Source of the DNA: Ionaspis alba
Lineage: Eukaryota
Reading direction: 5' to 3'
DNA length: 24,089 nt
NCBI GenBank assembly: GCA_964255285.1
Contig: CAXUUL010000007.1
Location: 62,001 to 86,089, forward strand
Part shown: piece by piece, positions 8,681 to 16,882 of the stretch
Numbering within the stretch: the first letter of the stretch is position 1
Layout: each line of letters begins with the position of its first letter
The notes under the pieces: generated by a model
Told to the model about the DNA's origin: nothing
The model's database searches: none
What the model saw: only the letters and a program-made list of their open reading frames with translations
Translations under genes and position numbers: made by a program

Positions 8681-10675
8681 ATGTCAGAGACCTGCATTGT
8701 CTGTCTGGGAGATCTTGGCGGAAACGTCACTGATGTACCTTTTCCCCTGAGCACCGACAATTCAGCAGAAGATGTAAGGGCCAGCGATGGCCACGCCAAG
8801 TTGTCCCATGATACCATTGCCACGATGTCAATACGTCCTCCTCATGACACCCTACTGATTGCCCACCTTCTACCTTGTGGTCATAACCTCCACGACGAAT
8901 GTCTCAGGCCTTGGGTAGAACGCGCCAACAGCTGCCCCATTTGCAGGCAGAACTTCAATCAAGTTGAACTTTGTACCCATGTTGGAGGTGAGAGTGTCTG
9001 AGTTACTCTGGACGGCTCAAGGAATGTGCTGACATACTGTTCAGGCTCGATCACTTCCTCCTACCCTGTACATGACCGCACGCAGGTAGCGGATCTCGAC
9101 GAATCTCTATTGATCGATGACTACGACGAACTTGAGGCGCAGCCATGCCCGATCTGCGGGCTTGATGACCATGAAGAGGTTCTTCTTCAATGTGATGGGT
9201 GCGACGGCTGGTATCACACGTACTGCGTGGACCTCGAATCTGTTCCGTCCGGCGCTTGGTTTTGTGGACGTTGCACAGAGGATCGGGTTTTTGAATCCAC
9301 CCCGGAGCGAGTGAGGTCCCGAAGTCACAATCCTTCGGATCGACGAACCAGAGGTCAACAACGGCGAGTGCAGAACCATAACCAAGTAACTTCGTCTGGC
9401 TGGTCTCGAGTTTGGCAGTCGGTTTGGGATCAACTCAACCTTGACCTTGACTTCCCCTTCGATGACGGCCCCAGTCCAGCCCAATTCCGAGGAGCATACC
9501 AGACGAACGCGTCTCAAGGGCGTGAGTTCACAGAGTGGGAACGGAGACTTCGAGTAGCGGAACGGCAAGGCGGTGCCAACCGATTTCGGGACACCGCTGC
9601 AACACTGTTAGATCGTGATTCAGTAGTCGTGTCGCGGCCACGTCCAAACGACCCCGAGCCAGAGTCCGTCGAGGAAATATTAGCATGGAATGCTTTGGAG
9701 AAAGCCAGAGATATTGATGCAGATCCAACTTCAAGGACAAAAAAGCGAAAGTCGGCTTCCGCCTCACCATCCGAATCAAATCCATTCTCTCGACAAAAGA
9801 AACGCAAGTCAGCCACCTCCTCCCCAGCGGATCTGACACCAACATCTCCCCCAGAGCGAAGACTCAAGAGACCTCAGACTCGGAGAACTCACGACCTTTG
9901 CGATGCCGCTTGCGATACTAATCGAGAATCTTCCCGTTGCCCCCAGCGGAGATCAGCGTCATCCGTACGCCACGAATATGTATCCATCATCCCTGCAGCC
10001 GGGAACGGTCCTAGCTTCTTGCAATCGTTACTTACAGAAGTAGAGTCATCAGGGGCGCAAGATGGGCAGCGAATCCTGAGACGTCCCGGTCTTGCATCGT
10101 CTAACCCCGCCACTTCCGACTACTCGTCGCCTAGACCTTCGTCCCCTGGCGACTCACCGACCGCCTCGAATCATCCCAGTCCACGTGCCTTATCCACAAC
10201 TCCTCCGCCGATACATTCTACCAGATCTGGATCGCCCATCCCGCTATCATCAAGAGTTGAGCCGATATACACCACCTCTGCTCTTTCCTCCGAAGGTCCA
10301 ACAACTCATCGGCCGAATCAATCGACACAAAGTCCGGTGTTAGAAGGACCACCAGCTCGAACGGAATGTTCGGATCTACTAGCGCCCAGTCCATTCCGTT
10401 CCGACGAATCCTCGCCGAATCGCCCAAAATTGTCCTTGTCCGCTAAATCAGATGTTCAATTGATGGTGAAGGAAGCCTTAAAATCTCCTTATAGAAGAAA
10501 TCAGTTGACCAAAGAACAATATACGGACATCAACCGCAAGATATCGCGGCTACTATACGAAAGAGTAGGGGATTCTGACAGGCTTGATGTTGAAATGCGG
10601 GAGAAATGGAAGAGTGTGGCAAAGGAAGAGGTAGCAAAGGCGATGAGGTCTATTGGAGTATCTGGCGGGACTTGA
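8681..10675 (+). CDS. RING + PHD finger protein with a C-terminal helical domain (Asr1/PHRF1/SCAF11-like); exons 8681-8987, 9045-10675
   Basis: RING-H2 (CIVC...CGHNLHDEC...CPIC), PHD (CPIC...CDGC...HTYC...WFCGRC), a Ser/Pro-rich linker and C-terminal VKEALKSPYRRNQLTKEQYTDINRKISR. One intron, GTGAGA..CTGAC..CAG, at 8988-9044. Confidence 0.88.
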
Positions 10676-11732: not shown

Positions 11733-11738
11733 ACGCGT
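11733..11738. promoter_or_regulatory. MCB element (ACGCGT), putative MBF G1/S site
   Basis: Exact MluI cell-cycle box about 95 nt upstream of the ATG at 11830, with further CGCG cores at 11681 and 11695. Confidence 0.45.
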
Positions 11739-11829
11739 TCTACGACATCAGGTCCTATCGAGTAAACTCCACCATCTCATCACCGTTCCTTCATATCTGA
11801 CGAACCGTACGAGGCTGTTTTGCCGTAAG

Positions 11830-13590
11830 ATGCCACGGCCGAGACGAACCAAAATCGCTCCTTCGGTTCCGACGGTAGGCGTCCCGACAAGGACCAATGC
11901 CTCGTCCATCGTTCCCAAGCACATTGTATCTCTGCACCCATCAAGTCGGGACAGCACCAACAGCGATGATAGTGAAGGGCTGGTCAAAAAGAGCAAGGCT
12001 TGGGCTGACCGCAACGGAAGCGCTCTTCAGGATGTGCGCATGAGTGGAGCACTGGCTATCGAGGACGGTGGAGGATCGACACGGCTGCGTCCGCTGAGCG
12101 GAAGGGAGCGGGAATCGCTCTTGAGGATCGTAAGAGATGCCGACTATGCGAGGAAGGTTGAGCCTCTGAAGCGAAACACGAAGAGAGGTACCAGGGATGG
12201 AAAGGGAAAGCAAGCCGAGAGTGCCTTACTATCTTCTTCCATGCCTGAAGCGCAGGAGCACCAGACCATTGATCGAGCTAAGCCGAATGAAGCGTCCGTG
12301 ACCAGAGTTGCGGTTCTGCACGCAAATCGGCCTGCACCACGCCCAGATGCTGAGGCACAGATGACGGCAGCTGCGGAGGCGTCCGTCTTAGCGCTCGCGA
12401 GATTTCGGAAACGAGCCCGGCAGGCCAGTATACTCCAAATTGGACACCAGGATGATTCGCCCTTACCGAGCTATACTCTCGATGACCTCGTTGACTTTAA
12501 TCCGGTCGACGAATCTACTCCACTGCAAACATCGAAGATTGGGTCGACATCACACATTCAATCGCCGCGTGGTCCTAAACCTCCTCCCTCCTCGATTTCC
12601 TTGCCCTTGACTGCGACCAGCTCACACAAGCGTAAGCTAACGGCACCAGTCGTACAAGTCCCTCGCTCGCAGATATCGGTTCGTCAGGCTTCATCCACTC
12701 TATCAGAGCGAGATTCCAAGTTGGACGCAGAAGACGACGAGATCCAATCTAGTATGCCGGAAGGGACACAATTGATCTTACCGCTCATGCGCGAGAAGCG
12801 AGTTCTGACATCAGAGACAGGGAGCAGTGTATTTGCCCTACCCCAGAGTTGTAGCCCATCTCAATTGGAATCAGATCAGGAACACAGAAAAGACTCGGCA
12901 TGGCATTACCAAGGTCATAGTAGAAGGGCAGATAAGCGCCGTGATCTGCCCGCTATACAAGCCTACCAGCGCTTCACCTCAGGGCAGAGAAGAGCCCGGA
13001 CTGAGCCTCTCAAGTCCCTCTCCACTGCCACACTCCAAGATTTCCTTCCTCGTCGGCGCCTTCGCAAAGCCCGACACCTCATGGGTGAGACTGACATTCT
13101 GAACAAGAGCGATAACGAACCCAGGCTTTCGGAACCAGCTGACGACCACGACGAATTGACTTATGTTTCCCCTCGTGCCAGGAAAGGTGGTAGAAAAGAC
13201 CTAGGAGGCACTAAGTGGAAGAGGTCTGGAAAGATCGTCGTGGATGCAGAAATGGGGGCCACCTCCCGGCGAAGATCCAAATTCAAAAGTCGGAACGTCA
13301 GTAATCGCGCGGTCAAAGGCGTAACGCAAACATACTCACGCCGGACATCCGACAAGGAAAACCGACCTACAATTCGTGGCCTAGAGAGCGAGAAGGATGG
13401 TACCGACTCCAACTCGCTATCAGCTACATCAGACAATGCAAGTCGTGACGGCGTGAAAGCTACGGATATCCCGAAGAGATTAAGGACGGAATTGGCGACG
13501 TTGGTCAAGAAGTTCCAGGAGGTAGATGAATGGGACTTGCAGTTCGAGGAGGTAACAGCTAGCAGCAGCTCGCCACTCGAGGCTCGATGA
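11830..13590 (+). CDS. 586-aa basic, low-complexity protein; candidate sororin-like cohesin regulator
   Basis: Intronless ORF starting MPRPRRTKIAP. It has short ordered-looking islands (SVLALARFRKRARQASIL; LSTATLQDFLPRRR), TYSRR, DKEN and C-terminal ELATLVKKFQEVDEWDLQFEEV. The ORF is solid and the functional call is inference. Confidence 0.8.
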   Translation: MPRPRRTKIAPSVPTVGVPTRTNASSIVPKHIVSLHPSSRDSTNSDDSEGLVKKSKAWADRNGSALQDVRMSGALAIEDGGGSTRLRPLSGRERESLLRIVRDADYARKVEPLKRNTKRGTRDGKGKQAESALLSSSMPEAQEHQTIDRAKPNEASVTRVAVLHANRPAPRPDAEAQMTAAAEASVLALARFRKRARQASILQIGHQDDSPLPSYTLDDLVDFNPVDESTPLQTSKIGSTSHIQSPRGPKPPPSSISLPLTATSSHKRKLTAPVVQVPRSQISVRQASSTLSERDSKLDAEDDEIQSSMPEGTQLILPLMREKRVLTSETGSSVFALPQSCSPSQLESDQEHRKDSAWHYQGHSRRADKRRDLPAIQAYQRFTSGQRRARTEPLKSLSTATLQDFLPRRRLRKARHLMGETDILNKSDNEPRLSEPADDHDELTYVSPRARKGGRKDLGGTKWKRSGKIVVDAEMGATSRRRSKFKSRNVSNRAVKGVTQTYSRRTSDKENRPTIRGLESEKDGTDSNSLSATSDNASRDGVKATDIPKRLRTELATLVKKFQEVDEWDLQFEEVTASSSSPLEAR

Positions 13591-13916: not shown

Positions 13917-15558
13917 TCAAATGTCTTCGCGCGCAGGCGTATGCTTCCCACTCGCATGGCCGCCCTTTCTGACGAGACTGATGTTCTCTCTCAGCGCGAC
14001 ATATTCCGAATCTGCATAACCTAGGACACTTCTGATCTCCATGCTTTGCAGTCCCTTTATTCGGGAGATCTCCGTAGCAGAGTAATTGACCAATGCTCTA
14101 CCCACTTCCACTGGAGGAGGATTTACTGTCTCGTACGAGTTTGAAGATGTTACTTCGTGATCAATGCGTTCCTTAGGGATGATTGAATCGTCTGTGGCTG
14201 TCAAAAGCGATGGGATTGGCACTGAAGGGGTAACGACTCGTAGTCTCCTAACAACCACTATTCGTACAGCTTCTTCCTGAGCAAAGGTACCTTCCACGTC
14301 TACGATCCCGACGGGCAAAAGGCCGGCTTTGTCGAGTAAAGCACGATGAGCGCCCTCGTCGATGAATATCGTACCATGAGGAGCCAGTCCGTAGAGAATC
14401 CAAAAGGATCGATCGCGAATTGGATGTGGGTCCGGCAGAAAGCGGGTGTGCAGTGGCGCTTTGTAGAGCTCTTCGGCTTTGGACAGCTGGGCCGAGTCGG
14501 CTTGATGCATCGAGACTTGTTTTGGCGTAGCGGACAGGCCAGACGAATCCACCGTGAGGGTTTTGAGTTGCTGAACATATTTCACAATGTCAGCAACGTT
14601 CCCAGGTTTTGAGGAGCGGGTTATGACGGTTGTAACGCCTGCAGAGGTTGCGAGACGAGCGGCTACGATCTTGGTGGACATGCCACCTGTACCAAGACTA
14701 CTGCCAGAGCTGGAAACATCTGCAGCGATACTTGAAATATCACTAACAACTTCAATGGCCTGGGCATTGGGATGAGTACGTGGGTTAGTGGTGTATAGGC
14801 AATCGACATCCGTCATGAGAAATAGATAATCAGCCTGGACCATCGCTGCTGTGATGGCGGACAATGTGTCATTGTCTCCAAATTTAATCTCCTGGAAGGT
14901 GTCAGAGAAGAAAGTCTCGCCAGGGACGAAGAGGTGCAAGCATTCTTACAGACACTGCGATGGTGTCGTTTTCGTTCACTATCGGGATCGCACCTGTATT
15001 GAAGAGCTCGTTGATGGTGTTTTGAGCGTTTTGGTATTGTGTCCGCTGAAAGTTCCGTCAGCAGCAAAGGCTCATGGCCGGACGAGAAAACATACATCTG
15101 CTATGGTTGTCCTGGTCAGGAGTATCTGACCGACCCGATGCCCTAAGTGCTCAAACATTCTTTTCCATAAACTGATGAGCTCGCACTGTCCGACTGCCGC
15201 TAGTGCCTACTGCAGGGTAAGGATGGAAAGGGCCATCGTAGTTGAGCACGGTCAAGGAGAGGGAGAAAATCTCACCTGTATTCCGGGAAGATGCTTCGGT
15301 CTCTTAGCTACACGCATCATCCACATTCCCATCCCTATCGCTCCCGAGGAGACGATAACAACCCGATGTCCATCCTTGCGTAGCTTAACAGCTGTCTCAA
15401 CGACAAGTGCCAGATTTGAAAGCAAAGGCTCATGGCTCTTCTCATCCACAATGGAGCTGGTGCCTGGTTCGTAGCAAAGATCAACCGTGCTCTGGCGACA
15501 ACTCCGGATCGTGCGTACCCAGCTTGATGACAATTGTGAGATATTTGTGGCCCTTCAT
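13917..15558 (-). CDS. PRO1: Glutamate 5-kinase with C-terminal PUA domain, 469 aa; exons 15558-15519, 15463-15276, 15206-15096, 15045-14950, 14891-13917
   Basis: [54 protein letters not shown], then PUA-like [13 protein letters not shown]...GRALVNYSA. Four GT-AG introns preserve the frame (1410 nt in total). Confidence 0.95.
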
Positions 15559-16065: not shown

Positions 16066-16882
16066 ATGAGTGCACAAGACAACGGCGTACAGGCGGCCGA
16101 CAAGCCGTCAGGTTATACAGCTGGCAGCGATAGCTTCACTAGATGGCGCAATTGGTTCTCGCTCCTGACTGGACAGATGAACGGAAAAGACGTGGAGCAA
16201 TACCGAATCGACCGAGATCACCGAATGGAGGAAGCTGACTGCAAGCGCTGCGAGTCAAATCGAGATTATTTGCTACAATACAGTGGGTTTGCAGATCGCA
16301 AGCTCACGACTAGGGGGTCTGATTGAAGGCGGTTATTAGGTCCGGTCGTTCGCTTCATGAGAGACAACATCAATCAACTGGGAGGAGACATCCACAGCGG
16401 CAATGTACGGTGTCGAAGATGTGATACTCGCCAGTCCGGCGGATTCGACCCTAACTACGGAATCCGCATCTGCGCGAACGAGCTACGCAACCGAGGACAC
16501 CTCGAGGACACCATGGCGCACGGCAAGTAATCTACACTGCATCGCTTCTGTCCGTCCAGCTGACGACTCGATACTAGAAATGGTGCATGCCTATGATCAC
16601 CTCCGCTTCAAGGTCAAGTGGTCAGACGATCTCCGACATGCGGCCTGCACGGAAGTCAGAGCGTCCTCCCTCAGCGGTGAATGTAGATTCATGCGCGAAT
16701 TCCTTACCCGAGGTCAATGGAAGCTCACGCAGCAGCATCAGGAGTGCGTGAGGCGACGAGCTACACTTTCTGTGCGAAGTAGACCTGGTTGCAAGGATGA
16801 TGTTCATGCCGCAAGGATAGTCAACGAGGTATGGGACAGCTGCTTCGCAGACACGAGGCCCTTTGATGAGATTTACCGGTAA
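16066..16882 (+). CDS. ATP23: Mitochondrial inner membrane metalloprotease Atp23 (peptidase M76), 234 aa; exons 16066-16282, 16340-16522, 16578-16882
   Basis: [58 protein letters not shown] (HEXXH), [16 protein letters not shown] and [10 protein letters not shown]. The second intron is GC-AG. Confidence 0.95.

Follow-up and report, generated by a model that had tools for sequence, protein, structure and literature searches.

Introduction

For a long time sororin, the antagonist of Wapl, was regarded as restricted to animals. Here we describe a gene of the lichen-forming fungus Ionaspis alba which very probably encodes a sororin of the Pezizomycotina, that is an orthologue of Schizosaccharomyces pombe Sor1 and of vertebrate sororin (CDCA5), a disordered basic protein acting via short linear motifs. 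The gene occupies positions 11830 to 13590 of a stretch of 24,089 nucleotides (GenBank assembly GCA_964255285.1, contig CAXUUL010000007.1, positions 62,001 to 86,089 of the forward strand), which is called the window in the following. All coordinates refer to the window and, unless stated otherwise, to its forward strand. An original prediction, made from the letters of the window without database searches, had proposed that a filamentous-ascomycete sororin was hidden here as a hypothetical protein.

Sororins have been described in several fungi. In Sordaria macrospora SMAC4_08091 was identified as Sororin, a largely unstructured protein of 701 residues without FGF motif or KEN box. Upon its deletion Spo76/Pds5 and Rec8 leave the meiotic axes in early prophase, and deletion of WAPL, which is epistatic, restores them. 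In genetic terms, this Sororin shields Pds5 and Rec8 against Wapl (PLoS Genet 2025, PMC12758814). AlphaFold models suggest that, like those of animals and plants, the Sororin box of an Aspergillus fumigatus orthologue binds Smc3 and the N-terminal domain of Scc1 (Nasmyth et al. 2023, PMC10656103). S. pombe Sor1 (SPAC9E9.05) binds Pds5 and Psm3/Smc3, its loss is partly suppressed by deletion of wpl1, and each of its residues F299, V302, D303 and Y305 is essential (Prusen Mota et al. 2024, PMC11148194). Sor1 was found in that work with a hidden Markov model (HMM) built on the sororin C-terminus. The Schizosaccharomyces sequences were then added and fungi were searched with the resulting Sor1/sororin HMM, for which the best fungal match was XP_001941430 of Pyrenophora tritici-repentis, a member of an "uncharacterized" family conserved within the Pezizomycotina (PMC11148194).

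For the two functional segments of sororin, residues and consensus motifs have been reported. Human sororin no longer binds a recombinant RAD21-N103/SMC3 head when it carries the double mutation F241A/F247A or W233A/E252K. E245 is the predicted contact of SMC3 K1034, and SMC3 K1034E/K1038E loses binding (Chen et al. 2026, PMC12976308). The consensus of the animal box is FxE[A/hydrophobic][E/D]x[F/Y]ELx-hydrophobic-E (PMC10656103). The published Pds5-interaction motif (PIM) reads K/R-T/S-Y-S-R-K/L, and Arabidopsis WAPL has RTYGRR. Motifs of the PIM type are also found in Wapl, Haspin/Hrk1 and Eso1 and compete for one site of Pds5 (PMC11148194). In human sororin phosphorylation near the PIM releases Pds5 in mitosis (PMC12976308), and in vertebrates the YSR motif is dispensable when sororin is overexpressed (PMC10656103).

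The Open Reading Frame and Its Homologues

The segment from 11830 to 13590 is one intact open reading frame (ORF) of 586 codons without internal stop, beginning with the ATG at 11830 and ending with the stop codon at 13588–13590. It was annotated as the single-exon coding sequence of a sororin-family protein. Its start is backed by homology, as an N-terminus of the MPRPKR type occurs in 72 of 94 homologues and the first in-frame ATG of the window's ORF leads to MPRPRRTK. Many homologues are colinear with the query over 100% of its length; therefore, no intron need be assumed. The deduced protein has an isoelectric point of 10.04 and consists to 68% of polar, charged, Gly or Pro residues and to 21% of hydrophobic or aromatic ones. 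Five SP sites and one TP site are present. AlphaFold2, supplied with an alignment of 94 sequences, gave a mean predicted local distance difference test score (pLDDT) of 46, with 424 of the 586 residues below 50. The sole confident element was a helix comprising residues 549–567 (pLDDT ~92). These values agree with the disordered basic protein with several SP sites that had been predicted. The coordinates of all motifs named in the prediction were exact as well, namely QTYSRR at 13327–13344, DKEN at 13351–13362, LVKKFQEVDEWDLQFEEV at 13501–13554 and ACGCGT at 11733–11738.

A search with the window's protein as single sequence yielded 94 homologues with expectation (E) values down to 1e-85. The closest ones, with 37–40% identity, belong to lichen-forming Lecanoromycetes (Trapelia, Xylographa, Circinaria, Umbilicaria and others), while weaker matches came from Dothideomycetes and Leotiomycetes. 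A profile built from non-lichen members retrieved 633 proteins, and a profile of three Sordariomycete-type ORFs from metagenomes retrieved 466 representatives (clustered at 50% identity) among 1.84 billion proteins. Comparison of the lichen-centred with the Sordariomycete-type alignment by hhalign gave a probability of 100% and an E value of 2e-44. Members from the Sordariales are, by name, Podospora, Bombardia, Diplogelasinospora, Rhypophila, Cladorrhinum and Mycothermus/Humicola; Gaeumannomyces, Ophiostoma, Sporothrix, Ceratocystis and Plectosphaerella are also represented. In the following, motif counts refer to the 94 matches of the single-sequence search and to 116 new profile-search matches among those listed (in one case the best 120 of 633). 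The conservation of residues was read from two alignments, one of 28 and one of 94 sequences. Aspergillus, Neurospora and Sordaria were not among the matches listed in the three homologue searches, of which one was given as the best 120 of 633. This has no bearing on whether these genera possess a member, because a word index limits the candidates and the best 120 of 633 were listed.

The connection to the published sororins is provided by the homologue P0089, which is XP_001941430.2 of Pyrenophora. It matched the window's protein with an E value of 2.1e-8 and the family profile with 1.7e-108. Because this is the protein reached by the published HMM, the gene of the window belongs to the published Pezizomycotina family. 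The text of the supplement of PMC11148194, as far as available, mentions neither Pyrenophora, Aspergillus, Neurospora and Pezizomycotina nor XP_001941430. In the databases the members are named "hypothetical" or "uncharacterized", apart from evident mislabels. Ceratocystis members and one JGI record (P0290, P0365 and P0237) are labelled "ATP-dependent RNA helicase MRH4, mitochondrial" or "RNA helicase", and the Pyrenophora RefSeq entry P0089 is labelled "Nucleo-P87 multi-domain protein". The helicase and Nucleo-P87 labels found no support from Pfam in the members scanned, a set which included P0089 and lay outside P0237, P0290 and P0365. The description of the gene as hidden is thus correct for the database names and incorrect for the literature (PMC11148194, PMC10656103 and PMC12758814). 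The sororin link of the Pezizomycotina family was already in print in 2023–2025, and the lichen-fungus gene is an added member of this family.

The C-Terminal Box

The C-terminal sororin box at 13474–13554 is formed by the helix 549–567 (pLDDT ~92) and the following DLQFEEV. Its core F562-Q-E-V-D-E-W-D-L-Q-F-E573 ends 13 residues before the C-terminus. The box was detected in 92 of the 94 and 114 of the 116 homologues, always at most 25 residues from the end, and the two misses among the 94 are truncated proteins. F562 and D566 are invariant in the alignment of 28 sequences, V565 is at least 90% conserved in that of 94, and position 568 is aromatic in every homologue in which the box was found.

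Where Sor1 has the essential residues F299, V302, D303 and Y305, the window's protein has F562, V565, D566 and W568, with equal spacing and residues of like type. Likewise, F241, E245, F247 and E252 of human sororin (offsets 0, +4, +6 and +11) are matched by F562, D566, W568 and E573, so that four of five human contact residues are kept. The F-x5-aromatic-D-L-x-hydrophobic-E spacing recognized in the original prediction is in register with both the essential residues of Sor1 and the contact residues of the human protein. The box fits the animal core consensus when W is accepted for F/Y and D for E; a strict fit was seen in 14 of 210 relatives.

Upstream of the box a K/R-rich stretch (residues 451–505, 13180–13344) matches the K/R cluster which precedes the Sororin domain (PMC11148194). 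Residues 451–510 contain 19 K/R and are followed by an acidic/polar linker (511–548) that is longer than the 10–20 residues quoted for animals. Downstream of the box the protein carries the conserved tail TASSSSPLEAR (13555–13587), whose terminal R586 is invariant in 28 and at least 90% conserved in 94 sequences. The 13 conserved residues beyond E573 are an addition compared to human sororin, whose last residue, E252, aligns with E573 (PMC12976308).

The Pds5-Interaction Motif and the KEN Box

A motif of the PIM/YSR type, QTYSRR, is located at 13327–13344. T501 and Y502 are invariant in 28 and at least 90% conserved in 94 sequences, and by a narrow regular expression the TY motif was found in 85 of the 94 and 81 of the 116 homologues. 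The motif of the family can be written [variable]-T-Y-[S/T/G/A]-R-[R/K]; among Leotiomycetes and Dothideomycetes its consensus is RTYGRR. The PIM of the window does not fit the pattern TYxxxR[T/S]-hydrophobic-L of fungal Wapl (PMC10656103). Moreover, Wapl, Haspin/Hrk1 and Eso1 possess catalytic or HEAT domains but lack a Sororin box, unlike the window's protein.

Right after the PIM follows DKEN (13351–13362) with a KEN box at residues 509–511. A KEN box within 18 residues after TY was counted in 45 of the 94 and 81 of the 116 homologues, and where present it lies 8–11 residues after TY. Most of the listed Sordariomycete representatives carry TYG...DKEN, and Podospora australis (P0244) has DQEN instead. 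Because most Sordariomycete representatives keep this arrangement, the KEN box looks ancestral in the family and appears to have been lost in some branches. Teloschistales, Peltigerales and Ramalina-type lichens (P0030, P0032, P0035, P0039, P0044, P0086 and others) have no KEN box beside the PIM or carry another sequence in its place. The original prediction had named the conservation of the YSR motif, the KEN box and the C-terminal motif in Pezizomycotina orthologues as one of its checks. Such conservation was found for TY and the C-terminal box, and for KEN in part.

Comparison with Described Sororins

Like vertebrate sororin, the window's protein is disordered and combines a KEN box, which in vertebrates serves APC/C-Cdh1 (APC/C, anaphase-promoting complex/cyclosome), with a YSR motif in a basic stretch and a C-terminal helix, which in vertebrates binds the RAD21-SMC3 gate. 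The linker between basic stretch and box comprises 10–20 residues in vertebrates and about 40 in the window's protein. Vertebrate sororin further has an FGF motif and the aromatic residue W233 and stops at the counterpart of E573; the window's protein lacks FGF and that aromatic residue and has a tail added. An adjoining YSR motif is not described for the vertebrate KEN box in the texts cited, in contrast to the adjacent arrangement in the window.

With Sor1 the window's protein shares a C-terminal Sororin domain after a K/R-rich stretch, with the essential residues in register. The two differ in that Sor1 has 313 residues, a putative FGF motif and no KEN box, while the window's protein has 586 residues, a KEN box, a clear TYSRR, no FGF motif and about eight extra motifs. 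The Pyrenophora protein belongs to the same family by sequence, at about 28% identity and within the Dothideomycetes. In its box the aromatic position is occupied by F, and it shows a weak match to the Pfam family Sororin_C, which is missing for the copy of the window.

The Sordaria Sororin, compared by description only, resembles the window's protein as a long, unstructured protein from the Pezizomycotina. It differs by lacking a KEN box, which lies beside the PIM in the window's protein and in most family members. We infer that the Sordaria and A. fumigatus sororins are members of the window's family, because their descriptions fit and members are named in other genera of the Sordariales.

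The Upstream MCB Box

A perfect MluI cell cycle box (MCB), ACGCGT, is found at 11733–11738, 97 bp upstream of the ATG. Its position was compared in 70 orthologous loci from metagenome contigs, of which 20 non-duplicate ones contained the start codon and upstream DNA. The core ACGCG/CGCGT was present 97–155 bp before the ATG in 18 of these 20 loci, compared with 136 of 1738 background windows of 65 bp (7.8%). The full ACGCGT occurred within 400 bp upstream in 9 of the 20 loci and lay at 104–121 bp in 8 of those 9. In the orthologous loci its density was 1.18 per kb upstream and 0.25 per kb elsewhere. Some loci are near-identical (L003/L006/L008/L013, L002/L005, L011/L012 and L019/L022), so that the set amounts to about twelve independent promoters. 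The only lineage without an MCB core is L032/L046. In budding and fission yeast the MCB stands for G1/S transcription driven by the MCB-binding factor (MBF). By analogy, the conserved upstream core fits an expression at G1/S in these fungi.

Several orthologous promoters (L002, L003, L011, L016 and L028) contain a second conserved block about 10–25 bp downstream of the MCB core. The block reads ATCATCAACGTCAC or similar, and positions 11739–11760 of the window contain ACGACATCAGG. This block may be the site of a second factor or the region of the transcription start. The other ACGCGT of the window (9507) lies inside the upstream ORF of a PHD-finger protein (9002–10675, forward strand, 557 codons).

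Conserved Motifs outside the Sororin Features

The overall identity within the family is low (23–30% mean column identity), yet a string of short motifs is nearly invariant. In the order of the family these are MPRPKRTK, SDDSEGL, MSGAL, F[KR][KR]RxRxxSIL, DDFxPxDESTP, SRKRKL, APPxSSSP, STAxLQxLLPRRR and DEDEL. They are followed by the K/R-rich stretch ending in TY[S/G]R[R/K], usually SDKEN, the acidic/polar linker and the C-terminal ELxxxAxKFxEVDx[W/F/Y]ELEFEEVTASSSSPxDAR.

In the window the string begins with MPRPRRTK at 11830–11853, whose type was found in 72 of the 94 and 106 of the 116 homologues, and continues with the acidic motif SDDSEGL at 11962–11982 (conserved in the alignment of 28 sequences) and MSGAL at 12040–12054 (M71, G73 and L75 at least 90% conserved in 94). 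The basic motif FRKRARQASIL at 12403–12435 contains R195, R197, S200 and L202, all invariant in 28 sequences. DFNPVDESTP at 12493–12522, which harbours the only TP site, has counterparts in 89 of the 94 and 112 of the 116 homologues. HKRKL at 12625–12639 is a likely nuclear localization signal (K267 and R268 at least 90% conserved in 94). The Ser/Pro patch ALPQSCSP at 12835–12858, in which A336, S340 and S342 are invariant in 28 sequences, may be a site of phosphorylation. LSTATLQDFLPRRR at 13018–13059 (family STAxLQxLLPRRR) contains a short predicted helix (residues 399–404, pLDDT 66–71), and the acidic motif DDHDEL at 13141–13158 corresponds to DEDEL of the family. The motif F[KR][KR]RxRxxSIL is single in the window's protein and in Lecanoromycete and many Dothideomycete members. 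It is repeated two to three times in 67 of the 116 Dothideomycete/Leotiomycete members and in 24 of 110 members longer than 400 residues from the Sordariomycete-dominated set. Such repeats were seen in Leotiomycetes and in some Sordariomycetes; the motif was noted in P0080, P0088, P0092, P0124 and others. The internal basic motifs were also considered as shugoshin-like, securin-like or AT-hook elements, but these readings were dropped, as no profile or motif match was obtained for them.

The string of motifs raises the question whether the protein is a sororin orthologue with added jobs, i.e. a multivalent chromatin hub whose extra motifs recruit partners, in spirit like Dalmatian of Drosophila, which combines sororin with shugoshin-like protection (PMC11148194). 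We consider this reading tenable but rather unlikely. F223, T230 and P231 of the DESTP motif, K269 of HKRKL, L402, P407 and R409 of the LLPRRR motif and D441 and E442 of the acidic motif are invariant in 94 sequences, so that the extra motifs are conserved as well as those of sororin. The repetition of F[KR][KR]RxRxxSIL in many members is typical of a binding motif, and the length of 586 residues compared with the 313 of Sor1 speaks for this reading, too. However, none of the extra motifs has a known partner, and they could simply be further contacts to cohesin, Pds5 or Scc3, or phosphorylation sites, within the function of sororin. Moreover, six internal fragments searched against Pfam with E values up to 10 gave two unrelated weak matches and otherwise none, shugoshin families included.

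Evaluation of the Sororin Assignment

The assignment of the window's ORF as a sororin has to be weighed against a number of contrary observations. The Pfam model Sororin_C (PF25220) has 24 positions and a gathering score of 27.4 bits. It gave no match in the window's protein up to an E value of 10, neither with the whole sequence nor with C-terminal fragments of 45, 50 and 100 residues. Among 92 full-length relatives (28 + 64, with the truncated P0023 and P0061 left out) two matched with an E value of about 0.02, below the gathering score. When C-terminal fragments of 45 residues were used, 3 of 25 matched with 15.6–19.5 bits and a best E value of 9e-4, again short of the threshold. These three are from Pleosporales, have F at the aromatic position and align positions 7–21 of the 24-position profile with the box. 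A profile match to the sororin C-terminus, proposed as a check of the prediction, was consequently not obtained at the Pfam threshold (best relative 19.5 compared with 27.4 bits). When the PDB was searched with the protein sequence and with the alignments, full and C-terminal, no sororin was returned, only the chance matches Erlin-2 and EsxB. The ESM Atlas, searched with residues 490–586, gave one unnamed ascomycete cluster at 0.76 and no sororin or named family.

Further contrary points concern the motifs and the published comparisons. At residue 554 (offset -8) Glu takes the place of human W233, and a conserved Leu adjoins it. Q stands in place of K/R before TYSR, a caveat already raised by the original prediction that holds; this position varies across the family. 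Of the 85 TY-bearing homologues among the 94, 40 have no KEN box next to TY, and KEN is reported absent from Sordaria Sororin (PMC12758814) as well as from Sor1 and AtSORORIN (PMC11148194). The window's protein contains no FGF motif. FGF is absent also from the sororins of Arabidopsis (PMC11148194) and Sordaria (PMC12758814) and, therefore, does not define the family outside animals. The protein is much longer than Sor1, and the about eight extra motifs are conserved as well as the sororin motifs although they have no known sororin counterpart. ACGCGT occurs twice in the window compared with 4.0 expected from shuffles, which is not above chance, so that its mere presence means little. Finally, the published bridge between Sor1 and Pyrenophora is itself weak (E value 0.089; PMC11148194), and the Sordaria and A. 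fumigatus proteins are putative members of the family, placed there by their descriptions and by the members named in other Sordariales.

Taken at face value, several of these points could indicate a Pds5-binding or chromatin protein unrelated to sororin, whose box and TYSR are alike by convergence or chance and which does not antagonise Wapl. The similarity is indeed limited to short motifs, the scores of curated profiles stay below threshold, the bridging E value is poor, and motifs of the PIM type occur in Wapl, Haspin and Eso1 too. Nevertheless, such a coincidence is improbable, since all four essential residues of Sor1 and four of the five residues of human contact sites are matched in register, and this at the very C-terminus and after a K/R-rich stretch. 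Even below threshold, Sororin_C was the most frequent and best-scoring Pfam family for the C-terminal fragments among 24,736 models. In addition, the similarly described Sordaria protein acts genetically as a sororin (PMC12758814), and that of A. fumigatus is predicted to bind Smc3 and the N-terminal domain of Scc1 (PMC10656103). That the ORF is no gene but has arisen by chance between genes, in fungal DNA of balanced GC content, is practically out of the question in view of the 94 homologues (E values down to 1e-85), many of them colinear over the full length, the 466 profile representatives, and the conserved synteny and promoter element. The sororin reading of the original prediction is hence supported by the family link through XP_001941430.2, the box in register and the nearly invariant TY.

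Proposed Mode of Action

The mechanism proposed for this sororin is transferred from work on other species, in which gate binding, competition for Pds5, degradation via KEN and antagonism to Wapl were described. The present analysis itself shows the gene, its predicted disorder, its place in the family and the conservation of the motifs and of the promoter element. The C-terminal helix and the following strand (residues 549–575) would bind across the interface of the Smc3 neck and the N-terminal part of Scc1 and keep cohesin's DNA-exit gate closed. TYSRR (residues 501–505) in the K/R-rich stretch would take the Pds5 site of Wapl and thereby block the release of cohesive cohesin. Phosphorylation of Ser/Thr residues near the PIM may free Pds5 in mitosis. 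The KEN box would let APC/C-Cdh1 clear the protein in late mitosis and G1, and the MCB about 100 bp upstream would restore transcription at G1/S.

Tentatively, one may go further and regard Pezizomycotina sororin as an expanded multivalent hub and not as a minimal antagonist of Wapl. The close coupling of PIM and KEN and the conserved MCB would then make control by APC/C-Cdh1 and MBF the ancestral state of fungal sororin, with KEN lost secondarily. In this possible scenario the losses would comprise many Lecanoromycetes among the 94 homologues, Podospora australis and, according to PMC12758814, Sordaria.

Neighbouring Genes

The genes around the sororin gene encode a Sin1 CRIM protein, Kre9, a PHD-finger protein, a glutamate 5-kinase, an M76 peptidase, a protein kinase, TIP41, cystathionine beta-synthase and the beta subunit of the signal recognition particle receptor. 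These are ordinary fungal housekeeping genes and functionally unlinked to the sororin gene. The glutamate 5-kinase gene (AA_kinase and PUA domains; 13917–14945, reverse strand) is convergent with the sororin gene. Beyond it lies the gene of the M76 peptidase (Atp23-type; 16361–16882, forward strand). Both are conserved neighbours. The glutamate 5-kinase gene was found downstream on the opposite strand in 23 orthologous loci, which supports the positional orthology of the compared loci. Together with the M76 gene it is kept across many loci, including distant ones; the upstream PHD-finger gene is not.

Conclusions

Because fungal sororins can be recognized only by a box of about 15 residues, the named database members of this family are labelled "hypothetical". 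To name the lichen-fungus gene a sororin is, for this reason, a useful annotation. Beyond the published family, the analysis adds the nearly invariant TY, the KEN box adjoining it in most classes, the positional conservation of the MCB, the extra motifs and the database mislabels. This KEN box contrasts with the three non-animal sororins investigated up to now, which reportedly have none (PMC11148194 and PMC12758814). These comparative features give testable handles on the timing of Wapl antagonism in filamentous fungi.

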